The notes under the pieces: generated by a model | Seen by the model: the letters and a program-made list of their open reading frames with translations, nothing else | The model's database searches: none | What the model was told of the DNA's origin: nothing | Origin: a virus | Virus record (IMG/VR): IMGVR_UViG_3300045201_000011 | Location: 1-39,323 of that record | Reading direction: 5' to 3' (one strand) | DNA length: 39,323 bases | Shown here: positions 1,430-22,033 of the stretch, in pieces | How the letters are laid out: each line of letters starts with the position of its first letter | Numbering within the stretch: the first letter of the stretch is position 1 | Program-made: the position numbers and the translations under genes

Positions 1430-1516
1430 GCCCGCATGGTGAAACTGGTAAACACTGCGGACTTAAAATCCGCCGCCCGTTTGGGCTTGCCGGTTCAAGT
1501 CCGGCTGCGGGCACCA
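1430..1516 (+). tRNA. tRNA-Leu (anticodon UAA), type II, 87 nt, CCA encoded
   Basis: Manual cloverleaf. Acceptor GCCCGCA/TGCGGGC; D stem GTG/CAC with a GG loop. Anticodon stem GCGGA/TCCGC with loop CTTAAAA (anticodon TAA). Long variable arm GCCC-GTTT-GGGC; T arm GCCGG-TTCAAGT-CCGGC. Discriminator A, then CCA. Confidence 0.85.
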
Positions 1517-1993: not shown

Positions 1994-2035
1994 GTTTACT
2001 CCATCTATTCGCCTATGAGGAATTTCCCACAGGTG

Positions 2036-2064
2036 GATATATGGCCGCAAGAAGGTAATGTCTA
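2036..2064 (-). promoter_or_regulatory. Sigma70-like promoter candidate for the MarR-type gene (TAGACA-N17-TATATC), overlapping a GTGGATA-box
   Basis: Minus strand reads TAGACA (2064-2059), a 17-nt spacer, then TATATC (2041-2036) followed by CACCTGTGG. Confidence 0.3.
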
Positions 2065-2107
2065 GCTACCTACTTACTTCCGCCCTCCTGATTGATAGAC
2101 CTCCCGA

Positions 2108-2413
2108 CTAATTCAAAATCTCTTCTAGCTGGACCGCTGATGTTGCGTCTGCAACTTCCTCCTGCTCCTGCATTAGTGGAAACCAGTGGGCAAGCAAGAC
2201 GATGAAAATCAGCGAGCCGAATACTGCTAAGCGCCCAAAAGGAAACGAGCGCTCAGATTCATTGTCACGGGAATTAGAAATGGTGAGCTGCAAGCGTCCG
2301 ATAAACACTTCGCAGTCGTTTTTATGTTTGATCAGGCCAAAACCTACCCATTCGCTGCGAATTTCAACGAAAATTTCCTTTTTGAAAGGAAGCTTGCACC
2401 AATAACCAAACAT
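2108..2413 (-). CDS. Hypothetical protein with one predicted transmembrane helix
   Basis: 101-aa ORF. ATG is preceded by TAGGGA. Hydrophobic segment LAVFGSLIFIVLLAHWF and an acidic C-terminus. Confidence 0.45.
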   Translation of the reverse strand: MFGYWCKLPFKKEIFVEIRSEWVGFGLIKHKNDCEVFIGRLQLTISNSRDNESERSFPFGRLAVFGSLIFIVLLAHWFPLMQEQEEVADATSAVQLEEILN

Positions 2414-2431
2414 TCGAAATAATCCCTAGAA

Positions 2432-2659
2432 CTAGTTCGCGCCCGTCCCGTAACCGTTGCGCGAGTGGATTGATTTGGGCACAAAATTCCCGGCCTGCCG
2501 CTCGCTTTCTGCAAACGGAAGTTGGGGAACCTCGTGCCCTTGTATGTGACCAGTCATCCTGTCCCGATAAAACACTAACGTTCGGGATTTCCGGTAACGT
2601 GTCCGAAGTTTCTCGAACCGCCCACTTTCTATTAACGGATTATTTGCTTTTGTTCCCAT
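2432..2659 (-). CDS. Hypothetical basic protein (weak call)
   Basis: 75-aa ORF with an ATG start. Competes with a plus-strand ORF at 2470..2739. No recognisable motif. Confidence 0.3.
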   Translation of the reverse strand: MGTKANNPLIESGRFEKLRTRYRKSRTLVFYRDRMTGHIQGHEVPQLPFAESERQAGNFVPKSIHSRNGYGTGAN

Positions 2660-2874
2660 TCTGTTCCACTCTTATCCACAGGAAATATGACAGTGATAAA
2701 CTGAAAACGTGGAAGCCCACGCTTATCAGCATGAATTGAGAAAAACTCATAACGTCAACATTTCCAATGAGTTACGATAAGCGAGGAATGCTTCCTCTGC
2801 ACAAACCAAAGGGCAGTTTGAGCGCCACCATGTCAGGAAACATGTCTGTTTCATCTGTTGAACTCCATCTTGCG

Positions 2875-2935
2875 CTGATCATCAGGCCACGGGCGCGACC
2901 CCATGGCGACCAAAGCAAAAACCTTGGTTTCACAG
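2875..2935 (-). ncRNA. Hammerhead ribozyme motif, type II, copy HH1 (stem II has a U-U at 10.1/11.1)
   Basis: Minus strand reads CUGU GAA ACCAAGG-UUUUUG-CUUUGGU C GCCAUGGG-GUCGCG-CCCGUGGC CUGAUGA UCAG. The core CUGAUGA, GAA, A15.1-U16.1 and GUC are all present. Confidence 0.55.
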
Positions 2936-2959
2936 TTGATTTTAATGGGTTTTCTTTCC

Positions 2960-2988
2960 TTGTCCGCTCAGTGATATGGGATTATGTT
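2960..2988 (+). promoter_or_regulatory. Sigma70-like promoter candidate for the plus-strand gene (TTGTCC-N17-TATGTT)
   Basis: TTGTCC at 2960-2965, a 17-nt spacer, TATGTT at 2983-2988, about 30 nt upstream of the AAGGA RBS and ATG 3021. Confidence 0.3.
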
Positions 2989-3020
2989 CCCACTGTCCGC
3001 TTACGCTAAGGAATTACGTC

Positions 3021-3299
3021 ATGAACCGAATCGAAGATGAGCTATGCTTCCGGGTAGACCAGTGGACGGATGATGGAAGCAGGATTGATTCCGTTCTATC
3101 GCTCTCAATGAATGCGCTGATTGCACAGGGGGCATTTTATGAGGCCGTTAAACTCCGTCCTCACAAGCGCTTGACCATGCGGCATAAGTCGCGAGTGATT
3201 AATGAGCATGTTCCTGAACGACTACGCTTAATAGACATTGAGAAACGCGCCGAGCTGGAGCGGATGATTGCGGAAGCAAAGAACGCCCGCAAGAAATAG
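3021..3299 (+). CDS. Hypothetical protein; the only plus-strand protein gene in the genome
   Basis: ORF track gives 2976..3299. Start trimmed to ATG 3021 (MNRIEDELCF...) with AAGGA 8 nt upstream. 92 aa. Confidence 0.55.
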   Translation: MNRIEDELCFRVDQWTDDGSRIDSVLSLSMNALIAQGAFYEAVKLRPHKRLTMRHKSRVINEHVPERLRLIDIEKRAELERMIAEAKNARKK

Positions 3300-3300
3300 C

Positions 3301-3358
3301 TGCTCATCAGGCCAAAGGCGCAACCCCATGGCGACCGGAGAAAGCCCCCGGTTTCGCA
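3301..3358 (-). ncRNA. Hammerhead ribozyme motif, type II, copy HH2
   Basis: Minus strand reads UGC GAA ACCGG-GGGCUUUCU-CCGGU C GCCAUGGG-GUUGCG-CCUUUGGC CUGAUGA GCA. Predicted cleavage is after C at 3333. Confidence 0.75.
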
Positions 3359-3380
3359 TTGTTCTGCATATGTGGATTAG

Positions 3381-4022
3381 TTAGTGCGAAAAAATTGCAA
3401 CGCCTGAGGGAACATCAATCACATTGTAATCGTGTTTAATGTCGCGGGCGTATGCTTCATAATCGAAATAATCGATTAGAAACTGGGGAATCTTGCCGTC
3501 TGATGAGTGGCAAGACATTTGTTCGTCTGCTGCATTATCTGCATACTCCCGGAAGCTCTCAGAGATGCAAATGAATTGGTTCTCCATAGCGTCCGAGGCG
3601 TCCTTGAGATTACCGAAGTCCTTGATGATCGCCTCTAAGTCTTCCGAGTCGTGGCTGTCATGCTCTTCTAGGAACTCGACATAATCAGCAATTGCTTGCA
3701 GGCCGGGATATTCCCCGAAGGTTGACGGCATGTCGTCATAATCATGAACTGCATATTCTTCCGCGCTCGCTACCCTACCAGAACCGATGCATTCGGGACA
3801 TTCGCAAAGTCTCGTGTCACCTGTTTCGCTGTTATGGTGAGTGACTTTACCCTCACCTTCACAACGGACACATTTCACGGTCACGTTAGGAAACTTGCTT
3901 TCTCTGAGCATGGCGTTGACTTCATCCTGCATTTCATCAACGTCACTAGATGCTTCAACCCAGCGGCCATGCAGAACGCCGTTGTTATAAGATGCGAGAC
4001 AGGCAACGTAAAACCGAGCCAT
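3381..4022 (-). CDS. ardA: ArdA-family anti-restriction protein with an inserted double CxxCxGxG zinc-finger segment
   Basis: 213 aa. N-terminus MARFYVACLASYNNGVLHGRWVEA and ...EEYAVHDYDD..., a very acidic body and C-terminal YFDYEAYARDIKHDY fit my memory of ArdA. The insert is CVRCEGEGKV...CPECIGSGRV. Confidence 0.7.
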   Translation of the reverse strand: MARFYVACLASYNNGVLHGRWVEASSDVDEMQDEVNAMLRESKFPNVTVKCVRCEGEGKVTHHNSETGDTRLCECPECIGSGRVASAEEYAVHDYDDMPSTFGEYPGLQAIADYVEFLEEHDSHDSEDLEAIIKDFGNLKDASDAMENQFICISESFREYADNAADEQMSCHSSDGKIPQFLIDYFDYEAYARDIKHDYNVIDVPSGVAIFSH

Positions 4023-4126
4023 GATTAACCCCTTTGCGCTTGAAAATATATGTGATGAGGATTAATTGTGGGGAAGCCTCCGGCCTTATGACCGGAAGCC
4101 CCCTTGCGCTAGAGGGTTAAGAAAAG

Positions 4127-4157
4127 GGTCACAGTGATCGAGACTGTGGCCTTTTTT
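4127..4157. terminator. Bidirectional intrinsic-terminator-like hairpin between HH3 and ardA
   Basis: GGTCACAGT-gatcgag-ACTGTGGCC followed by TTTTTT on the plus strand and preceded by GAAAAG (CUUUUC after the stem on the minus strand). Confidence 0.5.
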
Positions 4158-4239
4158 CGTTTCCAGCGAAGGGTGATTGACCATGTGAACATGTCAAACT
4201 CCCCACAATATGCCCCTGTAACGTCGAGGCGTTCCGCGC

Positions 4240-4301
4240 TTGCTCATCAGGTTCTAGCCGCGACACTAGAACGACCAGAGGGAAGCCCCCCGGTTTCGCA
4301 A
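4240..4301 (-). ncRNA. Hammerhead ribozyme motif, type II, copy HH3
   Basis: Minus strand reads UUGC GAA ACCGGGGGG-CUU-CCCUCUGGU C GUUCUAG-UGUCGCGG-CUAGAAC CUGAUGA GCAA. Predicted cleavage is after C at 4273. Confidence 0.75.
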
Positions 4302-4322
4302 TGGTATGCATTGGTGGATTGA

Positions 4323-4502
4323 TTAAGCCGTTTGAAGCTTGCCGGTCAGTGCCAGCGAGTGAAAGAGATTATGAGCGCCGTTGATATTGGCCTCAGTGGG
4401 TGACCGTTCTGCCTTATCACATGCAGCATTGTAGGCATCGGCTTGTTGTTTGGTGAAAACATAACCAGTGAATGCCCTGTAACCTTCCGCGATGCGTTCC
4501 AT
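4323..4502 (-). CDS. Hypothetical 59-aa protein (below the ORF-track cutoff)
   Basis: Hand translation: MERIAEGYRAFTGYVFTKQQADAYNAACDKAERSPTEANINGAHNLFHSLALTGKLQTA. Its ATG overlaps the upstream stop (TAATG), which suggests translational coupling. Confidence 0.5.
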   Translation of the reverse strand: MERIAEGYRAFTGYVFTKQQADAYNAACDKAERSPTEANINGAHNLFHSLALTGKLQTA

Positions 4503-4753
4503 TAAATCAGACCTTCCAGTTCGTTTAGAATTTCGTTTATTGAGGGTGCATCCTGTGGTTTCGCTTTGCGGACAATTAAGCCAGCCTTACGCAACTGAGC
4601 GAGAACGCTAGGAACTTGAGGCGATAAGAACGCCACTAGACCATTTGCATCAGCTTTCGCCATGGTACGCCATGCCTCTTCCCCGGCTTCCGTTTCGGGA
4701 TAGAACCGCGTCCACAATCCATCATGACAGGCGTATGTTAGATCGGCTTGCAT
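4502..4753 (-). CDS. Hypothetical protein (83 aa)
   Basis: ORF track gives 4502..4756 (GTG). ATG at 4753. Coupled to the upstream small ORF (TGAGTGATG) and to the downstream ORF. Confidence 0.55.
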   Translation of the reverse strand: MQADLTYACHDGLWTRFYPETEAGEEAWRTMAKADANGLVAFLSPQVPSVLAQLRKAGLIVRKAKPQDAPSINEILNELEGLI

Positions 4754-4756
4754 CAC

Positions 4757-4846
4757 TCAGCCTTCCATTACGATTATTGAGATGAGCATAATCAGGCAGA
4801 TGAAACCGCCCATTGAGGCGAAAGCTAATGCTTCATTGAATGTCAT
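4757..4846 (-). CDS. Small hydrophobic peptide (29 aa)
   Basis: Hand translation: MTFNEALAFASMGGFICLIMLISIIVMEG. AAGGGA RBS 7 nt upstream. The stop abuts the next start. Confidence 0.4.
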   Translation of the reverse strand: MTFNEALAFASMGGFICLIMLISIIVMEG

Positions 4847-4860
4847 TTTGTTTCCCTTGG

Positions 4861-4910
4861 TTAGCGTTTAGGATGCTCCACAGTTCCCCGTGAAGGCACC
4901 TAAGGGCTAA
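4861..4910 (-). repeat. Structured 50-nt repeat, copy A (hairpin with GGAA tetraloop on the minus strand)
   Basis: 46/50 identical to 5105-5154. Minus strand reads CUUCACGG-GGAA-CUGUGGAG, flanked by UUAGG...CCUAA. Confidence 0.7.
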
Positions 4911-5087
4911 TCAGTAACCGGCCCACGTTCTCAGCGATGCAAAGTCCCCATCCCATGTGCCTGTAGTTTCACAGTGTTTTCCGTCTGCATTTGTGTAAGC
5001 ATCCTTGACTGTGATTGTGCCGTCCGCGTTATCGCTAATGAACCAATCATGTTGAGCGGCCCATGCGATTTGCTTCGTGTTCAACAT
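4911..5087 (-). CDS. Hypothetical 58-aa protein (below the ORF-track cutoff)
   Basis: Hand translation: MLNTKQIAWAAQHDWFISDNADGTITVKDAYTNADGKHCETTGTWDGDFASLRTWAGY. GAGGA RBS 7 nt upstream. Confidence 0.55.
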   Translation of the reverse strand: MLNTKQIAWAAQHDWFISDNADGTITVKDAYTNADGKHCETTGTWDGDFASLRTWAGY

Positions 5088-5104
5088 TCCGTTTTCCTCA
5101 TCAG

Positions 5105-5154
5105 TTAGCGTTTAGGATGCTTCACGGTTTCCCATGAAGGCACCTAAGGGCTAA
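5105..5154 (-). repeat. Structured 50-nt repeat, copy B (hairpin with GAAA tetraloop on the minus strand)
   Basis: Minus strand reads CUUCAUGG-GAAA-CCGUGAAG, flanked by UUAGG...CCUAA. Sits directly upstream of the RBS of ORF 4911..5087. Confidence 0.7.
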
Positions 5155-5945
5155 GCCCTAACCTGCATTGATATGCAGTAGTGGATAGAATGTAGTCCTA
5201 TTCAATTGTCAAAGAACTCAGAGGCTTAGCCCCTGCCCTTCCCGGCGTTTGCCGTTCGGTGATTTGGTTTATATCCACTAGTGCATAGATACGCAATAGC
5301 GAAAATGAAAAAATAGACACGCTATCCATCTTTTTTGGATAAGTGCCTGAATTTATTGAAAAGGAAATGCCACAAGCCCGCCACATGGGAACATGAAGAC
5401 GGCTAATGTTAGCGCCTTGAGGTGGCTTGAGGGCGACCAGTGGCGGCATGAGGTGGCGAAAAGGGCAGACGTGGAGACACTGAGACACGCACAGAAAGCC
5501 ACAAGCCTGCCCGCCTGCATTGCATCGGAAGCACTAGCGGAAGCCTTGAGCCTGCCCCCCGGTGATGCTCAGTCTCTTTGAAGTCCAGCAAATGCAGGGC
5601 TTACGGGAAACGTGTGGCGGATTTAGTGGCAAACGTGTGTGCCCGCGAGCCTTTACCGCGCACAGTGAGCGCCTGCTCGTGCCTTTCACCGCGCCCCCAC
5701 GGGGGGTACGCGCGCTGCCCCTCTATCGATTGCCGCCTCGGATTTTTTCGGGGAAATAGCCGCTACCCTTAGGGCATCACAAAGCATCCCTCAGGTTGAC
5801 TCAGGGAAGCTCGTGGGAAGCGGAGAAGCTCTAGGGTGAAGGAATGTAATAGGTGAACCTCAAGGCTCTCTGTGAGTCTCTGAGGCTGATTGTAGGTATT
5901 GACTTTCCCTACGAAGGCGTAAGCCTGAGAAGGGAAAGGGCGATC
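5155..5945. other. Long non-coding, short-repeat-dense region (candidate genome-end / concatemer-junction and early control region)
   Basis: No convincing ORF. Short direct repeats: GCCACAAGCC(C/T)GCC x2, GAGGTGGC x2, AACGTGTG x2, CCTTT(A/C)ACCGCGC x2, GGGAAGC x2. GC hairpin CCCCCACGGGGG. Confidence 0.5.
5184..5212 (-). promoter_or_regulatory. Candidate host-type early promoter (TTGACA-N17-TCTATC), overlapping a GTGGATA-box
   Basis: Minus strand has a perfect TTGACA (5212-5207), a 17-nt spacer and TCTATC (5189-5184). It faces the early small ORFs and ardA. Confidence 0.4.
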
Positions 5946-6281
5946 TCATTTTCTGCAAGGAAACAGGTTCGAACTAGCAACTTGAATTGCCAACGTAACA
6001 TTGTCGCCACTTCGATTTTTCAACCAAGAAACAGCTTTGATAATCTTGTCGTACGAGGTCTGTGAACGTCCTAAAGCAGGAGGCGGGCAACCAACAAGGC
6101 TAGGCGAAGCGGTATCCAGCACACCGTCAATATATCCCCAGCATCGATCTGTTGAGGCGTTACTCTCGAATTTACAAATGGAAAGGAACTCACCAATCTT
6201 CATCTTGGCGTAAGCGGGGTTAGCAGGAATGGCTAACACGATGGAGACTGATAGGAGAAGGCTTGAAACTAAGCGAGACAA
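5946..6281 (-). CDS. Secreted/periplasmic protein resembling Rap1a/Tai-type T6SS amidase immunity proteins
   Basis: 111 aa with a TTG start (AAGG upstream). Signal peptide MSRLVSSLLLSVSIVLAIPANPAYA. Mature part has the remembered family pattern: GEFLSIC...C-W-GYIDGVLD...GCPP...WL...LFPC. Confidence 0.5.
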   Translation of the reverse strand: MSRLVSSLLLSVSIVLAIPANPAYAKMKIGEFLSICKFESNASTDRCWGYIDGVLDTASPSLVGCPPPALGRSQTSYDKIIKAVSWLKNRSGDNVTLAIQVASSNLFPCRK

Positions 6282-6386
6282 TTAATAGTACCTTATGATG
6301 ATGGTCTGCCATCCTTAGCCTCTCAGAAGTCGAGAGGAAAGCCATGGAAATGATCATATACATAAGTAATTGAACCGGGCCTCCTC

Positions 6387-6404
6387 CTATGGTGAGGGGT
6401 AATT
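6387..6404 (-). promoter_or_regulatory. Phage RNAP promoter P1 (AATTACCCCTCACCATAG)
   Basis: 18/18 to the in-window consensus. Lies between the large-terminase stop and the Rap1a-like gene. Confidence 0.85.
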
Positions 6405-6452
6405 GGTTTGGCGAAAAAATAGGCAGGAGCAATGAATGCTCCCACCTAAATG

Positions 6453-8141
6453 CTAGTTAAGCCAGCCGCTTTCGTCCTTGCTATCGTGCCCACGATTACG
6501 TTGTACGAGGTCCATGAACTCCTGCAAGGCTTGGTCCCTCAAGTTCTCCACATGCTCGTCATGGGCCTTCTCTGTGTCTCTCGCCATGCTTTCAGCCCAG
6601 TAGCCTACAGCCATCGCCAACACGTCAAGACGGTCATCCTTAGCTAGAGAGCCACGGTCACGGGTGATGCGAGAGAGCTGATACATGAGCTGACGCTGAG
6701 GTTCAGCGGTCATCTTATGGTCAACCTCAATGACCTTCTGATCGAACACAAGCCGGTGCTGATTCATGATCGGCTCAAGGGTGTCGCATATGCGGCGTTC
6801 TTTCTGCTGACTGTGCTTCACCTCCTCTATACCTACAGCATAGATTCGGGACACGATTGGCTTGAGAAGCTGCGTGAACATGCCATCACCGAAGTTAGCT
6901 TCGACAATGATCTTGTTAACGCTGTGCGTCTTAGCCAGGACTGCCAGCCCCTTGAGGGTTGCTTCGCTGTAACCTTCCTTGAAGCCGCCTGATGCGACAA
7001 CGAAGAGGAAGCCATTAAGCTGCTTTACGATAGCGTAAGCGGTTTCGTCCTTGCCACGTCCTGAGGGGTCAATTGCCATGACACAACCGGAATACTCGGT
7101 CATCTCGTTCGATACCCACATAGGACGGAAGTAGGCATCGCCATTCAAGCCGACCATTGGAAGGTCGAGACGCTTATCAATATCCGAGGTCCAGACAAGC
7201 TTCACAGGCGCCATACGAGGGTCAAGCGAGGTAACCATAAGGTCACGGAACTTGAGCGGGTAGCGGTCCTGATCTGAGAGAGAGGTATCAAGCATGAACT
7301 GGAGAGCGAAGCCTGATCGACCATACGATGCTTCACGTTCCTGCAAGTCGAGGTCATGGAAGCGCTTCGGGTCAACTGGAGTACCTGCCCCCGCACCGTT
7401 CATAATCAACTGACTAACGAACGGAGCCAAACGTCCAAGGTACTTATCGGGATTTTCAGGGATACGGGCAGGCCAGACACGGATTTCATAGCCACGTTCA
7501 GGAAGTCGGTTATAAATCGACATTTCCGTCTGAGGCGTTCCGAGATAGATCACTCGGCCTCCGGGCTTTAGAACCGCGTCGAACTCCTTAATTCGCTCGG
7601 CCAACAAATCTCGCATCGTCGCGGTCATCGCATTGTTCAAGCTTTCAACGTCATCAGCAATGATCACGTCCGCACGAGAGCCGGTTAGCTGGCCGGTAAT
7701 GCCCACAGACTTAACCGAGGGCGACTGCGAAGCGCCTGCCGGTCCTACGTCAAAAGCAATATTACTATCACGCTGGCCTTTCCCCGGCTTGAGGTGAGCC
7801 AATATAGGCATCTCGGCAATCAGTCGCTTCGTGAATGTCGAGAACGCATCAGCGCGGTCTTTTGCAGCCGATACGACCATAATGTTGAGCTGAGGATTAT
7901 TTAGGAGCAGCCAACAAACGAAGGCACTTGTTACCCAGCTCTTACCTACGCCACGGAAGGCTTGAATGACGGAGCGCTTTGGCCCCTTCTGGAGATACTG
8001 AGCCATGTCATATTGCGTATCGGTTGGCTCGGGGAGATTAAGGTGCTGCCAGACTAGGAAGAGGAAGTTCCTGAAATCACGGCGCACGGGGTCGATTGGC
8101 GTCAAGCTCGTACTTGAAGCGCCATTAGATTGTACGTTCAT
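6453..8141 (-). CDS. Terminase large subunit (T7 gp19-like)
   Basis: ORF track gives 6453..8198. Start trimmed to ATG 8141 (MNVQSNG...). Walker-A-like FRGVGKSW, plus position and size typical of T7-type maturase B. Confidence 0.85.
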   Translation of the reverse strand: MNVQSNGASSTSLTPIDPVRRDFRNFLFLVWQHLNLPEPTDTQYDMAQYLQKGPKRSVIQAFRGVGKSWVTSAFVCWLLLNNPQLNIMVVSAAKDRADAFSTFTKRLIAEMPILAHLKPGKGQRDSNIAFDVGPAGASQSPSVKSVGITGQLTGSRADVIIADDVESLNNAMTATMRDLLAERIKEFDAVLKPGGRVIYLGTPQTEMSIYNRLPERGYEIRVWPARIPENPDKYLGRLAPFVSQLIMNGAGAGTPVDPKRFHDLDLQEREASYGRSGFALQFMLDTSLSDQDRYPLKFRDLMVTSLDPRMAPVKLVWTSDIDKRLDLPMVGLNGDAYFRPMWVSNEMTEYSGCVMAIDPSGRGKDETAYAIVKQLNGFLFVVASGGFKEGYSEATLKGLAVLAKTHSVNKIIVEANFGDGMFTQLLKPIVSRIYAVGIEEVKHSQQKERRICDTLEPIMNQHRLVFDQKVIEVDHKMTAEPQRQLMYQLSRITRDRGSLAKDDRLDVLAMAVGYWAESMARDTEKAHDEHVENLRDQALQEFMDLVQRNRGHDSKDESGWLN

Positions 8142-8169
8142 ATCGGTGCCTAGGAGACTCCGTGGATAG

Positions 8170-8205
8170 CAAAAAAGGCCAGACAGGTGATTACCCATCT
8201 GGCCT
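8170..8205 (-). terminator. Intrinsic-terminator-like hairpin between the small and large terminase genes
   Basis: Minus strand reads AGGCCAGA-loop-UCUGGCCU followed by UUUUUUGC. Confidence 0.5.
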
Positions 8206-8233
8206 TATGAAAAGCGCTCACGGAGCCGCTATG

Positions 8234-8476
8234 TTAGTTCGGGAGATACCCTGCGGTTTCATCCACGGTGTCTTCGGTGAATGGAAGGTTTGCCGCATGG
8301 TTCAGTCGATCAAGCGGGTTGCCGTCCTTGGGAATACTGTCCACGCCATTGTCTTTAAGGAACTGACGCACCACCGAAAGGTCGGAGGCTGTAGCCTCTC
8401 CGCTTTTCACGCGGGTTAGAAGCTCCTCTGCAAGGGCAGAGTGGAGAGAATCCATGATTTCTTTCATGTTACTCAT
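8234..8476 (-). CDS. Terminase small subunit (T7 gp18-like)
   Basis: 80 aa, immediately upstream of the large subunit. The ...ATASDLSVVRQFLKDNGV... motif is recalled from T7-group small terminases. Confidence 0.6.
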   Translation of the reverse strand: MSNMKEIMDSLHSALAEELLTRVKSGEATASDLSVVRQFLKDNGVDSIPKDGNPLDRLNHAANLPFTEDTVDETAGYLPN

Positions 8477-8715
8477 CGGAATATGAAGCCTTTGATTTCA
8501 TCCGCGAACATTGTGAGACCGGCAGCGATGACTACCCAGCTCCAGCGTACGGAAGCAAAGAAGCCTGTCTGCTGCTGTTTAGCGTTCTCAAGTTGCGTAA
8601 TGCGTTCATCTTGCTCATCAAGACGATTGTTCATCGTCCCCTGCTGGGAGAGCAAAGTGTCAACCTTGCCCTCCAGTCTTCCGAACATGAGGTAGAAGTT
8701 CGGGTCTTTGTCCAT
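8473..8715 (-). CDS. Small membrane protein at the T7 gene-17.5 position (holin candidate)
   Basis: 80 aa with a coiled-coil-like N-half and a C-terminal TM segment WSWVVIAAGLTMFA. Overlaps the terS start by 4 nt. Confidence 0.45.
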   Translation of the reverse strand: MDKDPNFYLMFGRLEGKVDTLLSQQGTMNNRLDEQDERITQLENAKQQQTGFFASVRWSWVVIAAGLTMFADEIKGFIFR

Positions 8716-8723
8716 CAGTTATT

Positions 8724-8924
8724 CTACTGCTCTAAGTTGGCTGGTTGCACCCACTCATTGAGTTCGATGCTCCATTCCCAGTCGTTGCCTTCTATGGGTG
8801 GAGCTGTGACCTTAATAATATCAGGGTCAGTGTCATCAACAGGCTGATTTGCTCTTGCAGCCACAACTCGAATTGCACGTTTCTTTTTGTTCCAGAAGTA
8901 GTGATCTACTATTATATCTGTCAT
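8724..8924 (-). CDS. Hypothetical protein (67 aa)
   Basis: ORF track gives 8724..8969. Start trimmed to ATG 8924 (MTDIIVDHYF...), just after the tail-fiber stop. Confidence 0.45.
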   Translation of the reverse strand: MTDIIVDHYFWNKKKRAIRVVAARANQPVDDTDPDIIKVTAPPIEGNDWEWSIELNEWVQPANLEQ

Positions 8925-8928
8925 TACT

Positions 8929-10536
8929 TTAAATCCCGAAATACCGTCCGGTCCATGTGTAAGAGCCACTACCTGAACGCTCTAAGCGGACAGATTCCCA
9001 CGGTCGAACTTTCATGAAAGAACCCGTAGAAGCCTGCTCGCCAGTCGTGGTGTTCCAGACACGGAGGCCAATTGTGTTTGTGGTTGTCATTGTGCTCTGT
9101 ACGATCAATGTCGCGTTGGTGTTGTTTTGCCACTCGGCACCGTGACTATTCAGGCTCGTACTACCCGTAATAAATCCAGCAGGAGAACGATTGGTCGATT
9201 CCTGTACCGCCCAATCGCGGCACCGCATTTCAATCCAGTCGTAAAGATAGCCACCGCCCCAGCGCGCACCGCTCAAGTTTCCATCCTGATAGAAGGTAGC
9301 GCTTCCGCCGCCTGCCTGAACAACCTCACCCGCCTGAATACGCCCACCGGCATAAATCCAAGAACCAGCTCGAATATCACCATCAGCTCTAAATTCACCG
9401 CTTGGGGTAAATGTGAAATACTTCCCAGCTAAGCCGTCAGCGTTCATGTGGAAAATCTGGTAACTCGTAGCTTGAGAGTTGTTCCCGGTATTAATAATCC
9501 CCTGAGTCCAGAAGCCCGCCCAACTACCTGTGCTGTAGTAATTAATCAAAGCTGGCGCAAAAACATTCCCTGAGACGGACGCCTGCACACGAAACGGTGA
9601 GCCTCGCTTGATGGTATCAGCGTAGCTCCCGCCCCATACGTCACCCCAAAAACCACTCGTAGCAATATTGCCTCGACTGTCTGCGCCTTTAAGCGAGCCT
9701 GTGAGGGTGCCGCCTGCGTGATTAAGTTTGGTGTCTGCATATTCCTTAGTAGCAAACTTCTGGTCTGCATCGGGTTTCTTGTAGTAACTATTAGGGTCGA
9801 AGTTGCCTACACGTTCAGCACTAGCGGCTGCGGCATCTGCCCACTCTTTCGCTTTGTCCTCATGACCTTTTGCAGCAGTCAAAGATGCTTTTGCTGATAC
9901 ATCGCTCGCGGTTGCACTTGTCGCTTTTTCCGAAGCAATCTTTTCGTGGCCCTCGGCTTTATTTGCCATGAGTGTGGCTCGACTATCTGAGCCGTCCGCC
10001 CGATTTGCGGCTGCAATTGCGCCAGCCTCTCTTTGTCCTGCAACCGTTGCGGAAGAATTGGCAGCAGCGGCTTTCTGTGTTGCCTGCTGTAATTGAGAGG
10101 ACATTGCTGTTTCGGCCCAGCGTTTTGTAACGGCGTCTTGGCCGTTCACTGGGTCGGCTAGAAGAGTAATACGGCGGTTCAAGGCACTAAATTGCCCGTC
10201 TTCCGTGACCGCCATAGATGCCGCGCCTTGGTCGAATGCTTCCTGAGAGAGGAAGAAGGATTGTAGTGTGGAGACATTCAGGTCCGTCTCTACGAGTGTA
10301 GAGCCGTCTCGAAAGGTGACCAGTCTTTGAACTCTCGGTGTTGTTCGTCGGACCTCGACAACTGAACCCATTGGAGGGGCAGTCACCGTCTGAACGCGGT
10401 ACGTATCAATCCAATTGAACGACACGTCCACGCCATCAACCTTCACCTTGACATGTGTTCGAGAGAGGTAGTCACAAGGAACGTCAAAGTTCTTATTGAC
10501 GCCATCGCCTTGCGAGTGTGCGTAAGAAAGAGGCAT
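8929..10536 (-). CDS. Tail fiber protein (T7 gp17-like N-terminal adaptor domain)
   Basis: 535 aa. The N-terminus MPLSYAHSQGDGVNKNFDVPCDYLSRTHVKVKVDG... fits the T7 tail-fiber N-domain pattern. Located after the internal core genes. Confidence 0.8.
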   Translation of the reverse strand: MPLSYAHSQGDGVNKNFDVPCDYLSRTHVKVKVDGVDVSFNWIDTYRVQTVTAPPMGSVVEVRRTTPRVQRLVTFRDGSTLVETDLNVSTLQSFFLSQEAFDQGAASMAVTEDGQFSALNRRITLLADPVNGQDAVTKRWAETAMSSQLQQATQKAAAANSSATVAGQREAGAIAAANRADGSDSRATLMANKAEGHEKIASEKATSATASDVSAKASLTAAKGHEDKAKEWADAAAASAERVGNFDPNSYYKKPDADQKFATKEYADTKLNHAGGTLTGSLKGADSRGNIATSGFWGDVWGGSYADTIKRGSPFRVQASVSGNVFAPALINYYSTGSWAGFWTQGIINTGNNSQATSYQIFHMNADGLAGKYFTFTPSGEFRADGDIRAGSWIYAGGRIQAGEVVQAGGGSATFYQDGNLSGARWGGGYLYDWIEMRCRDWAVQESTNRSPAGFITGSTSLNSHGAEWQNNTNATLIVQSTMTTTNTIGLRVWNTTTGEQASTGSFMKVRPWESVRLERSGSGSYTWTGRYFGI

Positions 10537-10547
10537 TTAATTTTCCA

Positions 10548-10584
10548 TAAAGAAAAGCCCCTGTCACCAGTGATGACAAGGGCT
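10548..10584 (-). terminator. Terminator-like hairpin upstream of the tail fiber gene
   Basis: Minus strand reads AGCCCUUGUCA-UCACUGG-UGACAGGGGCU followed by UUUUCUUUAU. Confidence 0.45.
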
Positions 10585-10606
10585 GGGATATTGTGAGTGC
10601 TGAAAA

Positions 10607-13600
10607 TCAGCGTTTACGTGACCACTCCGGTAAGGGACTGATCATCAATGAGGTTAGCTGTGCGATACCGCTGAGGTTATTGAACGGGAGCAAACGAAGG
10701 TAATTTCGGGCGTCTGCCTGCGAGAACTCTTTACCACGGGCAACATTCTGGCCGAACGTGTCGAGGGCTTTAAAACCGCCCGCCAATAGATCAGCAGAAG
10801 GGTTCCCTGTGATCACGTCAGAACCAAGCTGACTTGAGCGATTATCAAAGAATGGTCCGAAGCCTAACGGAGGAGCAATCGTAGAATCCCAAACAGCAGG
10901 CAATATGCTTGCCCATGATGAATATTGTACCCCGGCAGCAGCCATTCTTCCTAAGGTGAGTTGTTTTTCCAGATACTCGTCACGGTCACTTCGCCCCATA
11001 GCGTTAACGTGGGTTCGAGCTATGTAAACCAAGCTTGCCGCTACAGTCGTGCCGAGGAATGACATTGCAGTACTACTGTCTCGGAAGTTCAAGCCCTGCA
11101 TAAGTTGCTTTGAATAAGCGGAGAGTGTGAATGAGCGGAACTGGAGAAACGTACGCGCAAGCGGCTTACTCATCCACATCGCCATCTGGCCTATATCGTT
11201 TTCTTGAATGATCGTTCGACCAAGCCGGAAAGCTGCCGCTTCAAACTTTGCTACGGCATCCCGATCTGTCCACTTATTGAAGTTCATGGCTTTTAGCCGG
11301 GAGCCGTCGAACGAAGCATTTTCCCGGATACTCTTAAAGATCGCCTCACTGTCTGCCGAAGTCAGCCCAAGAGCTTCTAAACGGCGTGTGGTCATTTTCT
11401 GACCGCCTTGAGCCATCTGTGCGAACCTGTTGAAGATCGCCCGCCCTGTCCAACGCTGGAGAACCGTGTTGATTGGTGCCATCCCGGAGAGAGCGCTTAC
11501 TCCCCGCTTGCCCTTCTGCAACGCATCATCCAAACCTTTCACATACTTGTTCTGAATTTGATCAAGCGGGTTGTCGAAGAGGTCTGTTCGGCGGTGCGTG
11601 TCATGGCGAACCCAGTCAGTTCCGAGGGACGTTATGTCCTCAATCTCCTGAGCGAGTGCATCATCAAGCTTCCCTGTACGTGCATTGCGCCACATAGAAC
11701 GAAGCGAAGGCATGTTCGTGAATGCTGCTTTCAACCCAAGGTGTGAAACCGTATTTGCACTTTCGGAAAGCATTGACCAACCAACTTGCCCCATGACACG
11801 GATAAAGTTGTAATCGCGTGTCATTCGAAGAAACTGGTTCCATTTACCGCCCTCTTCCCAATGAGGCTTACCTACAACCGTGTCGTAAACCCAGTCGAGT
11901 TGTTTCAATGCATGAGCGGTTTCCGCTTGGTGGCCTCGTGCATCGCCAACATCACGCATCTGGTCTTTAAGCTTCGTCCATTCTCCGTCTGAGGTGATGC
12001 CGTCAACGAAGAACTCATCCGCTAGGTCGCCCTCTTTCCACTTCGGGTTCCTGATCTGCATACGAGCCATCGCCACGCGCCCGGACATTTGCCGATTATA
12101 GCCGCGCATGAGGCTGTCTGCGTCATTCACAAACAAGTCTGAGATACGGAAGAAATCATGGCCTGTGCCATCAGTGCGGGGAATATTCATCCCGAAGTCT
12201 TCATCAAACAATGCGCGGGCTTTACCGTGGCGGCTTGCACCGTCCTTCTTCCCCGGCTTCATGTGATGGATGACAGCATCAATATCTACGTCCGAAAGGT
12301 CCGTATCTTTCCTGAGGTTTTCTTTAAGCAGTTCAAGGTCTTCCCCTGAGAAAGCACGGGAGTTCGTCTGTAGCTCGCCCGCTGAAACCGAATGAACTTT
12401 CTTGACATAACCGTAAGCAAACTTCTCAGCCGCTTCCGCACTAATGTCCTTGTTCACTTCCCGGATGCCTGCACCGATGAGCTTTGACAATGTTCGATGC
12501 CCATAAGTTGATAGAGCATTCTGGACGCCGCCCATGTCGAATATGCGGGGAACATAGAAGTCATTTCGAGTTTGTCCCTCGAAACCCCTGACAGCTCGTA
12601 AGGTGCGCCCATCGATTGCGCCGGGATTAGCTGCGACTTCTGCCCAGTCACCCAGCACTTCTCGCATCATGGAACCCTGAGCTTTCACCGCTGGGTCATA
12701 TTCAACCATGACTTCCCGATCACGAACGAAAGCTGTCACGTCACGGTTGAAGTCGTCGCGGGTCTTGTTCGGGTTGCGCTTGGCATACTGTTTCCAGTTC
12801 GCTTGCGATGATGCCGACCATTTTGCATCAGCCCTGAGCTGGAGACGCTGCTGGACCTCAGATGCACCGATAGGTGTGATACCCTTTGCGTTTCGTGCGC
12901 CATCCTCGACAATATGCTCACCCACCATAGCAACCAAGTCGTTTGGATTTGTTTTCAGTGCGGATGCAACATCGAAGCGCATCTTGCCGCCAAACGTCTC
13001 AGGCCGTACCGCATCACGTAAGAAGTCAGCCGTATCATTGCGAAGGGTTTCTCTTGCACTGACCTGTGCCGCACCCGCTGTTGAACCGCCGTTCGGCATT
13101 GCTACACCATCACGGAGCTGCTTGCCGATTTCCTCAAAGCGGTTGGCTTCTATAGCAGTGGAAGGATTCTTGCGGAGCGCGCCAAAGGCACCGCCCATTC
13201 CCATGCCCATGCCGACCGCCCAGTAGAAATCACTAAGCTCAGCCGTGGGTTTACCAGCTTGGAGAAGGGCTTCCGATGCAGCCGTACCAGCCGCGCCCTC
13301 AACTGCCGTAAGGCCGATCATACCAACACGACCGAACCTTGCGCCGATAGCTGCGGGCGCTCCAAGGCCACCTGATGCCAGCGAAACACCAGCAGCAGCA
13401 GCCCATGCGAGCGGGTCAGTCAATCCAGCACCCATTCGAAGAGCCGTGCCGTAACCACCGAGAGACGCTAGGCGCTGCTCGGCTGCAACATGCTTTTCGA
13501 GGTTAGCCCTAATCTGCTGAGCATGTTCATCCGAAAGTGCATCCTCAAAGCGATTCCAGTATTGCTCCGGGATGCCCTTGGTCAAATCGTCAAAGCGTTG

Positions 13601-17774: not shown

Positions 17775-20143
17775 CACGTTCTCCTCGAACGGATGATGAA
17801 AGTCGCTTCCCATTCGGCGGACAAGAGTGCGCAAGGTAACGGGCTGTCATTGATAATCTCGATTTCGGTTTCTTCGGATTTACCGGAGATTGGGAACCGG
17901 AAACGACCAGACTCAAGCGAAGGCTCGCCAATGATGTTTCTGCCGCCACCTGTTACACGCCCTGAGAATACACTCGTGTAGACTTCCCTTCGGAAGGGCG
18001 TAACCTCAGCACGGAAATAACCGCTGTCGTTGTAGGTCAACGTCATGCGACGAAGCTGCATTCGACCGGCACCGACCGCCATTTGCCCCCCGCCAACAGC
18101 CTCCTCTTTAATAACTAGCTTTGAGAGACGGTATCGGAATGTGTACTTCTGCCCAGCGATGAAGTCTGTGACACGGCCCGCAATGATGAATGTATTGCTG
18201 CTATCCCATTTAAGCGGAATGAGCTGGCCCATACGATAAGGACCGTTATCTACACCAATGATCTGGAACTGTGCGGGACGAGTGACCTTGTAAGGCAGCT
18301 TGATCTGAGTTTGATCATTCGTTGCATCATAAACAACGGAACACTGAGAGGCATTCACACGCTGATCGAGATGAAAGGCAAAGTTGATACCGGGGTCAGT
18401 ACGGCCTGCCTCAAGACTGATCACTTCGAATAGAACTTGTCCATGGCGTTCAACCAGCATCCATAAGTCGCTTTCAATGAAATCCACATAAAGAACGGTT
18501 GTGTCCTCATCGAATATCCATTTCGACCAACTTGATTGAAGCTTCTCAAGCTCCTGCCAATAGTATTTGTAAACGTATAGTGCGTTCTTCTCTTTTGGCG
18601 AAAGCGCTACTAGAACGTCTTCATTCGAACTTGCGGCAAGCTTAGTCACACTTCCGGGGATATACTTGGGAACATGTGCGGTAACATCGGCGGCGTCATT
18701 CGTCTTCGTTTGTCCGTCAACATAATATTCCCGGATGCCGGAGTAAGCACCCTTGTTCATAGCAAAGTAGATATTTCGGCCAGCGCCTACAGGCTTCGCT
18801 AGGAGTGATGCCTGAAACTCAGTCGTTTGATTGATTGAGATTGTGTAAGGTGTCAGCGTATCGGCTGCCCCAAGCATGAACTGCGTCTGATCTGAGAATA
18901 GCAGAAGCGTTTCATTGAACGGTATAGCATGGCGTATGATGGAAACTTTAGTGTGACTGACGGCAACGTCGATCATGTCCGTATCGAGCGTTTGGGTCGC
19001 TGAGCTTCTCCAGAACGTAAAGAACTCACCTGCACGGGAGAATATCACATTCTCATCTGCAACCAGTCCTAAGCGGTTTCTGTGGAAGAAAATGTCATTA
19101 ATCTGTTTACCAATGAACGAAGGCTCAGGTACGCTTTCCGTGTCACCGACCTTGCGCTCATCCCATGGAATTTGCTCGAATGAAAACGTCCCGTCCGAGA
19201 GGCGTTTCAGCGCGTGAGGCATTGTTGCGCCATTGATACGGTATAGCTCACCGCCTTTGCACGATTCTTTCCAGATGCCAGTTGAGCTTCCGCCCGTAGG
19301 GTTGGAGAACTCTACCCAGTAGTTATCGAATGCTGATGACTGGTCACCGCCTATTTCGATCTGGAAGCCATGGAATGCCCTAGCCGGTAACTCAGAGAAG
19401 CGCTGAGCTGTATCCTTACAAACCTTGATTGCCTGATCACCGAGACCATCAGCGCTCGACACTGCGAAGTCTGCCCCATCCCATCTAGTGACGCGGATAG
19501 TCGAACCAAGTTGATTCAACGTGAACTGCGAAGTGAATGTCTGGTCAGCATTGAATAGGTTAACGAGCTTGCCCATAATGGCATCCGTAGCAATCTGCTC
19601 GGTGTGCGATTTATCTGAGCCATCCGGGGTCTTGAATGTCTTCTGAATGCCGCCAATGTTGACTGTGTAGTTTTGAGCATAAGCGCCTTGTCGTATCCAG
19701 ACTAACGCTTCCTTTGGTCTGCTAGGCGTAAGCTCATTCGTCATTCCAGCAGTGCGCGTGCTGTTTAGTATGAACGTATAATCGGCAATCGTTACAGCGG
19801 TGAAATCCTTGTCTGCTGCGGAGGTAGCGAGATAATTCTTACCGTTAGGAAACGACACGGGAACTTCGGTGCCGTTCATTCGAAAAACCCTAAGGTTTCC
19901 GTTGGTTATCACCACCGCATATCGTTCAACAGAATCTCGGTTGATCATGTGGACGAATGCAGTCCCGAAGCTGGTATCACTGATCTTTGCGACAAACCGA
20001 GATGGAGGCCGTTTCTTTAAGCCCTCGACAACAGAGCTATGGCCGTTCTCTTGAAGTTCACACTGAGAAGCCAGACGAAGCGAAGACGGCTGCTGCGATA
20101 CGCCATTGACGAGGTTCGGAATTGTTGAGCTAATCAGGGTCAT
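17774..20143 (-). CDS. Tail tubular protein B (T7 gp12-like)
   Basis: 789 aa. N-terminus MTLISSTIPNLVNGVSQQPSSLRL...EGLKKRPPS parallels T7 gp12 MALISQSIKNLKGGISQQP...EGLQKRPP. Confidence 0.9.
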   Translation of the reverse strand: MTLISSTIPNLVNGVSQQPSSLRLASQCELQENGHSSVVEGLKKRPPSRFVAKISDTSFGTAFVHMINRDSVERYAVVITNGNLRVFRMNGTEVPVSFPNGKNYLATSAADKDFTAVTIADYTFILNSTRTAGMTNELTPSRPKEALVWIRQGAYAQNYTVNIGGIQKTFKTPDGSDKSHTEQIATDAIMGKLVNLFNADQTFTSQFTLNQLGSTIRVTRWDGADFAVSSADGLGDQAIKVCKDTAQRFSELPARAFHGFQIEIGGDQSSAFDNYWVEFSNPTGGSSTGIWKESCKGGELYRINGATMPHALKRLSDGTFSFEQIPWDERKVGDTESVPEPSFIGKQINDIFFHRNRLGLVADENVIFSRAGEFFTFWRSSATQTLDTDMIDVAVSHTKVSIIRHAIPFNETLLLFSDQTQFMLGAADTLTPYTISINQTTEFQASLLAKPVGAGRNIYFAMNKGAYSGIREYYVDGQTKTNDAADVTAHVPKYIPGSVTKLAASSNEDVLVALSPKEKNALYVYKYYWQELEKLQSSWSKWIFDEDTTVLYVDFIESDLWMLVERHGQVLFEVISLEAGRTDPGINFAFHLDQRVNASQCSVVYDATNDQTQIKLPYKVTRPAQFQIIGVDNGPYRMGQLIPLKWDSSNTFIIAGRVTDFIAGQKYTFRYRLSKLVIKEEAVGGGQMAVGAGRMQLRRMTLTYNDSGYFRAEVTPFRREVYTSVFSGRVTGGGRNIIGEPSLESGRFRFPISGKSEETEIEIINDSPLPCALLSAEWEATFIIRSRRT

Positions 20144-21787: not shown

Positions 21788-22033
21788 ATTATATTTTCCT
21801 GTGATGAGTTTGGAAGTTGATCAGGCTTCCCGAAAGCTCACCGCAAGCAAAACCAAGGTTATCCCCCTCAGGGGGCAATGGTCCGCTTATGATTTGTTTT
21901 GGGATTACCTTTGCGTCACCGCGCATGAACTGTTGGCGCAGTGTGACTGACTTCATCATCAGGAAAGAGGCTCCCCAGTTACGCTTCATTGAGAGGCGTG
22001 GGGAGCATTTTTATTGACAGGAATAACCTGTGA

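Follow-up and report, generated by a model that had tools for sequence, protein, structure and literature searches.

A type II hammerhead with a U10.1·U11.1 mismatch, probably the third ribozyme of an ardA module in a metagenomic phage genome

Type II hammerhead ribozymes, in which loop I forms a pseudoknot with the 3' tail, occur in prophages as clusters that flank genes (Perreault et al., 2011, PLoS Comput Biol, PMC3088659). In the prophage of A. tumefaciens C58, three of them surround ardA and one further gene without a known function, in a neighbourhood that runs from tail genes through ardA and marR to the integrase (PMC3088659, Figs 3, S2, S3). The products of this triple in vitro were those expected if all three ribozymes are active, the triple arrangement self-cleaved upon expression in E. 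coli, and the identities of the hammerhead-flanked genes are reported not to be constant (Perreault et al., 2011, PMC3088659). Prophage type II hammerheads also cleave in vivo in D. vulgaris (PMC8782182). In the hammerhead reaction G12 acts as the general base and the 2'-OH of G8 as the general acid, and the products carry a 2',3'-cyclic phosphate and a 5'-OH (PMC11300833, PMC8782182). As for the pair that closes stem II, a natural hammerhead with U10.1-U11.1 has been documented, and of the mispairs U·U is described as tolerated best (Perreault et al., 2011, PMC3088659, Fig 5), while in the same study a 10.1/11.1 mispair serves as a filter for rejecting candidates unless activity is shown. The ribozyme that carries the natural U10.1-U11.1 and its rate are not given in the text of the supplement to that study (PMC3088659), and nothing usable in the way of quantitative data on 10.1/11.1 mismatches was found in the literature.

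The stretch of DNA analysed here, called the window in the following, is a metagenomic phage genome of about 39.3 kb (39,323 nt; JGI 3300045228) with almost all of its genes on the minus strand, among them those for a T7-type RNA polymerase, a DNA polymerase, structural proteins and the terminase (6453-8198). After the terminase follow small ORFs, a hammerhead termed HH3 (4234-4301, minus strand, C17 at 4273), ardA with a zinc-ribbon insert (3381-4022, minus strand; Pfam PF07275, 9e-32), HH2 (3294-3359, minus strand, C17 at 3333), a 92-aa gene on the plus strand (3021-3299), HH1 (2869-2935, minus strand), further small ORFs, the gene marR for a MarR-type regulator (1517-2050), a tRNA-Leu on the plus strand and the integrase gene int (259-1383). 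The window thus has the layout of the published module, namely three type II hammerheads around ardA and one gene, between the terminase and the marR-integrase end, and it shares with the A. tumefaciens C58 triple the gene order tail genes, hammerhead, ardA, hammerhead, gene, hammerhead, marR and integrase. Judged by its homologues, which are 63-75% identical, the 92-aa plus-strand gene can be taken as real; searches of Pfam, PHROGs, NCBIfam and PADLOC gave no family for this protein or for the 35-aa, 75-aa, 101-aa and 59-aa proteins. HH1 itself sits in a region of 166 nt between the divergent genes that begin at 3021(+) and 2854(-). Sibling contigs are circular permutations of the window genome, and the relatives L001 and L002/L063 (Brucella pseudintermedia) are found integrated, as prophages; the phage would be a temperate, T7-like phage of Rhizobiales.

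On the minus strand, positions 2935 to 2875 read CUGU/GAA/ACCAAGG-UUUUUG-CUUUGGU/C/GCCAUGGG-GUCGCG-CCCGUGGC/CUGAUGA/UCAG (61 nt), and these letters are exactly those given in the first-pass annotation, which had proposed a third, slightly degenerate hammerhead at this place. The topology is that of type II, with stems I and III capped by loops and stem II open to the flanks, and the elements follow one another as 5' strand of stem II, GAAA, stem III hairpin, GUC, stem I hairpin, CUGAUGA and 3' strand of stem II. Stem II is formed by CUGU (2932-2935) and UCAG (2875-2878) through the pairs C2935-G2875, U2934-A2876 and G2933-C2877, with U2932 (U11.1) opposite U2878 (U10.1), which agrees with the U·U noted before at 10.1/11.1. 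The core and the GUC site are intact, as had also been claimed: G12, A13 and A14 (GAA) lie at 2929-2931, C17 at 2908 and CUGAUGA, from C3 to A9, at 2879-2885, so that the consensus is present at all 13 core positions and U10.1·U11.1 is the sole departure from it. The stem III hairpin (2909-2928, ACCAAGGU-UUUU-GCUUUGGU) runs from A15.1 to U16.1, the pair A2928-U2909, and comprises eight pairs, seven Watson-Crick and one G·U; compared with HH2, two of its G-C pairs have become A-U, a compensatory change that bears out the covariation already proposed for this stem. The stem I hairpin (2886-2907), recovered by a grammar scan, by alignment and by folding, has eight Watson-Crick pairs and the loop GUCGCG at 2894-2899. 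The 3' tail, GCGCAAG (2869-2875), can pair with loop I in two ways, either GCGC (2872-2875) with G2896-C2893 (4 bp) or GCG (2873-2875) with C2897-C2895 (3 bp). By the hammerhead consensus, the scissile bond is predicted between C17 (2908) and G1.1 (2907).

A cmscan of the whole window with all Rfam families assigned 2869-2935(-) to RF02276, Hammerhead_II, with 37.3 bits and E 3.5e-4, a score that passes narrowly the gathering score of 37.0 and is 6-8 bits below those of HH2 (45.7 bits) and HH3 (43.4 bits), which are likewise matched; the Rfam covariance models found no further hammerheads in the window at E<=1. A model-free grammar that disregards positions 10.1/11.1 (GAAA; stems III and I, each of 4 bp or more, with UH between them; then CUGANGA) returned exactly HH1, HH2 and HH3 from the window; in the controls it gave 0 matches over 503 kb of reversed decoys and, for shuffled windows, 0.04 matches each. 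The feature at HH1 is real, far beyond chance, and both searches uphold its description as the third hammerhead of the type II family in this genome. With RF02276 it shares the topology, the 13-nt core, GUC, the pseudoknot and the phage or prophage intergenic context of type II hammerheads (Perreault et al., 2011), and differs in having U10.1·U11.1 in place of the near-invariant G-C; G10.1-C11.1 is a strong expectation and not an absolute criterion for RF02276 membership, and from its sequence HH1 is filed by class as a type II member, as a variant. In the printed structure line of RF02276, stem II pairs model positions 2-58 and 3-57 and leaves the C at position 4 (C11.1) unpaired, with G opposite G. 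This stem II annotation looks like an off-by-one error, which alters the penalty for U·U and not the detection of HH1.

For comparison, 35 further loci obtained by pattern scans of viral and genome collections were added to the loci already fetched, and the grammar scan identified 57 distinct type II hammerheads in these related loci. G10.1-C11.1 is found in 42 of them, another 14 have an extra U after A9 and then G-C, and HH1 alone has U·U; the pair is therefore under strong selection, being retained in 56/57 distinct relatives and in 26/27 rows of the alignment, with HH1 as the outlier. An assignment of U10.1 in HH1 to the subtype with the extra U after A9 was considered and rejected, because the next pair would be C-G and not G-C and U11.1 would still be unpaired. 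No alternative register of stem II restores a G-C by the core, the nearest C being 4 nt 5' of G12. Pattern scans of the viral_contigs and metagenome_contigs sets returned no second U10.1/U11.1 copy with the stem I type of HH1, and no more HH1 orthologues by the stem I pattern GCCAUGGGGU...; the metagenome_contigs set evidently lacks the window's own contig, which makes its zero weaker than it appears. HH1 is identical in all 19 copies, and the sibling contigs that carry the window's proteins give no information on polymorphism.

In a non-redundant alignment of 27 sequences, 94.7% of the stem cells are paired and compensatory changes are present in 14 of the 19 pairs, a level of covariation reached by 0/500 shuffles and nowhere approached by slid registers; stems I and III were recovered independently from the same alignment by RNAalifold. 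Furthermore, in a permutation test on the family, loop I and tail pair over 3.82 bp with their own partners and over 3.21±0.10 bp with permuted ones (0/2000), and HH1 keeps a loop I-tail pairing of 4 bp. The relative L001, whose 92-aa protein is 68% identical to that of the window, carries four hammerheads, one of which (5856-5929, 44.2 bits) lies at the HH1 position and has the canonical G10.1-C11.1. Stem I of this orthologue is nearly the same as that of HH1, the letters of stem III are wholly different yet paired, and loop I and tail read UAGC/GCUA in L001 and UCGC/GCG in HH1, which is a compensatory change of the pseudoknot. The intergenic DNA around HH1 is otherwise not alignable between the window and L001, and since the ribozyme is kept where its flanks are not alignable, it has been constrained since the split of the two.

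The published module provides a second comparison through the locus L040, in which the order is tail fibre, hammerhead, ArdA, hammerhead, a 105-aa ORF, hammerhead, MarR, tRNA and integrase, syntenic with the window. A primer of Table S1 of Perreault et al. maps beside the first hammerhead of L040 with a 14-nt match, which L058 has as well; from this match and the synteny we infer that L040 is of the A. tumefaciens type. Compared with the A. tumefaciens triple, the window has another gene between its second and third ribozymes, and this gene lies on the plus strand; the ORF of L040 (8406-8723) is co-oriented with the ribozymes, whereas that of the window (3021-3299) is opposite to them. The third ribozymes differ too: stem I of HH1 is HH2-like and not of the GUGGGGCUUGGCAUGCCCCGC type, and its U·U stands in the place of a G-C that, in the A. 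tumefaciens-type copy, comes after an extra U behind A9.

What follows the third ribozyme is conserved. A 35-codon ORF (MKQTCFLTWWRSNCPLVCAEEAFLAYRNSLEMLTL), unannotated and conserved, starts 26 nt past the HH1 core (ATG at 2854, stop at 2747, minus strand) and is preceded by GGAG (2863-2866) and the spacer UUCAACAG. A homologous small ORF with the same Shine-Dalgarno sequence and spacer lies directly 3' of a hammerhead in L001, L040, L035 and L048. Behind the third hammerhead of L040, L035 and L048 come GGAG, nUCAACA and the start codon of a small ORF with the motif xxQTPFLAWWRxxCP, which across the window and the four loci becomes xxQTxFLxWWRxxCP. In five lineages (the window, L001, L040, L035 and L048), a hammerhead thus directly precedes a conserved small ORF of the type GGAG-nUCAACA-start. 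This tie between the third ribozyme and the small ORF is a new observation of the present analysis, and it is not stated in PMC3088659. The shared synteny and the shared small ORF make HH1 and the third ribozyme of the published module positional orthologues. The subtype at this position varies: the window and L001 have an HH2-like stem I, the Agrobacterium-type loci the GUGGGGCUUGGCAUGCCCCGC type with its extra U. The spot is nevertheless occupied by a ribozyme every time, and it can therefore be argued that cleavage there is under selection.

Taking these comparisons together with the sequence of HH1, we consider it likely that HH1 belongs to the ardA module as its third ribozyme and is a true type II hammerhead, stabilised by a pseudoknot, active but attenuated. 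At the ardA-marR-integrase end of the genome, HH1, HH2 and HH3 would process polycistronic RNA of minus-strand (phage) sense. By the mechanism described in the literature, the 2'-OH of C17 (2908) would attack its own 3' phosphate and the RNA would be cut between 2908 and 2907, with a predicted 2',3'-cyclic phosphate on C17 and a predicted 5'-OH on G1.1 (2907) (chemistry from PMC11300833, PMC8782182). The upstream fragment would end in the stem III hairpin with its cyclic phosphate, and the downstream fragment would begin with the 5'-OH at the stem I hairpin and continue through the Shine-Dalgarno sequence and the 35-codon ORF to the 75-aa and 101-aa genes, marR and int. In a phage-sense read-through RNA, the cut of HH1 would fall just upstream of the Shine-Dalgarno sequence of the small ORF, and cleavage by both HH1 and HH2 would free a stretch of about 425 nt that is antisense to the 92-aa plus-strand gene.

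A comparable arrangement exists in phage T7, where RNase III sites cut the polycistronic transcript of the early genes into gene-length mRNAs ending in hairpins. By analogy, the likeness may extend to the gene that comes first, an anti-restriction gene in both cases (ocr in T7 and ardA in the window); the difference is that hammerheads would cleave themselves, with no host enzyme, and leave 5'-OH and 2',3'-cyclic phosphate instead of 5'-phosphate and 3'-OH ends.

The sequences upstream of the three ribozymes are not alike. A GTGGAT/ATCCAC box is present upstream of HH2 and HH3 (3351-3378 and 4293-4320; 0 expected by chance), and an ATCCAC-containing motif (AATCCACnnATGCAnAnCAnUGC-GAAAC) precedes HH2, HH3 and three of the L001 copies. 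The box as such is missing before HH1, as the first-pass annotation had seen. An interpretation of this as decay is not supported, because the orthologue of HH1 in L001 lacks the box as well and shares with HH1 another upstream motif (GGAACATAnTCCCAT ... CAAGGAAA), located where the divergent 92-aa gene has its leader or promoter, so that the missing box reflects a different conserved context. ATCAAC, which abuts stem II of HH1, is reminiscent of the ATCCAAC before the third ribozyme of L040, and it is possible that it is a remnant of the box. As an observation in its own right, the box of about 28 nt (AATCCACnnAUGCAnAnCAnUGCGAAAC, 3351-3378 and 4293-4320, minus strand) begins just behind the stop codon of the upstream gene and continues into HH2 and HH3 respectively; possible roles are those of a promoter, of a signal for processing or of an extension of the ribozyme at its 5' side.

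The motif shared with L001 upstream of HH1, together with the position between divergent genes and a weak sigma-70-like match, 2966->2939(-), that ends just upstream of HH1, raises the question of whether these 67 nt act mainly as DNA, as a promoter or operator of the 92-aa gene or of the small-ORF operon, the likeness to a hammerhead being incidental or vestigial. We regard this as very improbable: the conserved DNA motif lies outside HH1, what the window and L001 conserve within it is the RNA structure, through compensatory changes, and not the primary sequence, and promoter-like matches are no commoner than in shuffles. In fact, sigma-70 and terminator scans of 2000-5200 gave no more sites than shuffled sequences (promoter-like 4 vs 3.8).

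The more serious questions about the HH1 ribozyme concern the U·U. The near-invariant G10.1-C11.1 pair that closes stem II is absent, U2878 facing U2932. In the minimum free energy structure of HH1, which makes up 45% of the ensemble, U10.1 lets CUGA (2885-2882) pair with UCAG (2878-2875), sequestering C3-A6, and UGUG pairs with CGCA of the tail. In nearest-neighbour energies, which omit the pseudoknot and the tertiary contacts of the core and are to be read for direction only, the hammerhead fold lies 4.1 kcal/mol above the minimum in HH1, 1.0 in HH1 with G10.1/C11.1 restored in silico and 0.9 in HH3. In the mutational series of Ruffner, Stormo and Uhlenbeck from 1990, U·U is said to be the mispair at 10.1/11.1 that supports most cleavage. 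The natural U10.1-U11.1 variant has the same mismatch at the same position, in a context that may differ (Perreault et al., 2011, Fig 5). With the pseudoknot hammerhead crystallised as PDB 8YDC (Zhan et al., 2024, PMC11300833) HH1 would have in common the A9·G12 sheared pair, a 10.1-11.1 pair and the pseudoknot helix; the RNA of 8YDC has the standard G10.1-C11.1, unlike the U·U of HH1, and no structure exists for a U·U hammerhead variant. HH1 probably cleaves, and because G10.1 is absent and U10.1 creates the CUGA/UCAG hairpin, it is probably slower than HH2 and HH3; complete inactivity is less likely, since U·U is documented as natural and as the best-tolerated mispair (PMC3088659). Of the earlier suggestion that HH1 may be weaker or inactive, the first half is thus retained, in the sense of a slower ribozyme, and the second is disfavoured. 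As to its low score, the syntenic third hammerhead of L040 reaches only 32.2 bits in Rfam, and the products of the published arrangement that this locus appears to match fit three active ribozymes, so that a marginal Rfam score is not diagnostic.

The isolation of HH1, which alone among 57 distinct relatives lacks G10.1-C11.1, and the G-C retained by its L001 orthologue would also suit a recently inactivated relic, in which the pair and the A9/G10.1 metal site have been lost and the rest has not yet decayed; however, both changes fall on one pair and give the best-tolerated mismatch, and a natural U·U hammerhead has already been reported (PMC3088659). The competing hairpin with its penalty of 4 kcal/mol and an Rfam score barely at the threshold point in the same direction, but nothing else in HH1 is damaged, the core being complete, both stems having their eight pairs and the pseudoknot being kept, and its position and flanks are conserved across lineages. 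We therefore judge a relic to be unlikely, while giving it more weight than any of the other alternatives to an active HH1. The idea of HH1 as a decaying copy of the repeat is not supported, on similar grounds: its stems are the best among the three copies of the window (stem I of HH2 has a U·U and a G·U), the pseudoknot is kept and the position is conserved in relatives.

The fact that the alternative structure is the minimum free energy one could instead mean that HH1 is deliberately attenuated or conditional, with U·U and the CUGA/UCAG and UGUG/CGCA pairings slowing cleavage or tying it to co-transcriptional folding, and thereby setting the ratio between read-through RNA, in which the antisense of the 92-aa gene is fused to the small-ORF mRNA, and processed RNA. 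The concerted nature of the two mutations and the location of HH1 within the 166-nt divergent intergenic region would agree with such a design, but scans of the viral and metagenome collections gave no second lineage with it, a canonical ribozyme occupies the same position in L001, the alternative hairpin has just 4 bp with a 3-nt loop, and no ligand or protein partner is indicated. It is accordingly improbable, by our estimate, that HH1 was built in this way, and the same low weight is given to the wider proposal that a slow or conditional HH1 evolved, in which the change from G-C to U·U and the core-sequestering hairpin tune the fused read-through RNA and ribozyme kinetics form part of a phage switch. 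If this were true, the released antisense RNA of about 425 nt would have 5'-OH and 2',3'-cyclic phosphate ends, which RtcB could ligate or circularise.

Returning to HH1 as a probably active, slower ribozyme, some information comes from the ends of contigs. The contig L013 (identical to L019; JGI 3300047599, Ga0485954_04108) has 2280 nt and consists of window positions 2877-4272 joined directly to 18592-19475, a segment inside the nozzle gene. Its junction is without microhomology and lies exactly at the predicted scissile bond of HH3, 4272/4273, where C17 is 4273 and the first base of the product 4272. It would look like an RNA-derived chimera formed at a ribozyme 5'-OH end, by template switching of reverse transcriptase or by RtcB-type ligation; a DNA rearrangement is the alternative. 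Both L013 and L014 (Logan SRR35920865) end at window position 2877, in the 3' strand of stem II of HH1 and 30 nt 3' of its cleavage site, and thus read through the predicted site, as a relic would allow. The k-mers shared with HH2 were considered as the cause of the break at 2877 and are too short to explain it. A search for contigs with an end at 2907/2908, where the predicted products of HH1 would begin or finish, gave none. Read-through at HH1 in two contigs against a break at HH3 in one is weak evidence against an active HH1, as its meaning depends on the type of sample.

Within an ordinary family HH1 is slightly unusual, the module and the U·U having both been published already, and general knowledge of hammerheads is unchanged by it. 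What it adds is a natural U10.1·U11.1 hammerhead, a rare variant, whose surroundings are well defined, the two sister ribozymes of the genome and the orthologue of a relative, all canonical, being internal controls, and hence a clean system for gauging the most conserved pair of stem II in pseudoknot-type hammerheads. The picture of the module is also sharpened, its third ribozyme being tied to a conserved, unannotated small ORF; that the ribozyme is kept although subtype and neighbouring gene have been exchanged argues for selection on processing at this exact point.

Some further features were observed in the window and in the related loci. The locus L044 (IMGVR_UViG_3300047320_000035) has 13 type II hammerheads within about 8 kb (3017-11119, minus strand; grammar scan), roughly one per gene, many of them of the subtype with an extra U after A9 and several with CUGACGA cores. 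Two prophage loci of the Agrobacterium type, L034 (8381-8438, plus strand) and L035 (4553-4610, minus strand), show a weak type III hammerhead match (RF00008) a short way upstream of the type II triple; at 30-35 bits, these matches stay below the gathering score of 48.5. In the window, a match to the abiF RNA (RF03085) at 21970-22005 on the minus strand (36.7 bits, E 0.0033) is just under the gathering score of 37. The tRNA-Leu(UAA) between marR and int is complete (1430-1516, plus strand) and lies on the strand opposite to all its neighbours. L001 has tRNA-like matches at 3065-3142 and 4421-4504, one of which is a second, partial copy at the junction with the host and probably the att site. 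Finally, the gap between HH3 and ardA includes the only stretch in 2600-4500 with DNA similarity to deposited phages (4097-4236, minus strand; 80-85% to the Rhizobium phages RHEph01 and RHph_I20). This stretch is non-coding in the window, holds a terminator-like hairpin (4148-4130) and a GC-rich hairpin (GGGGGCUUCCGG...CCGGAGGCUUCCCC), and perhaps represents a small RNA or a terminator/promoter that has been conserved.
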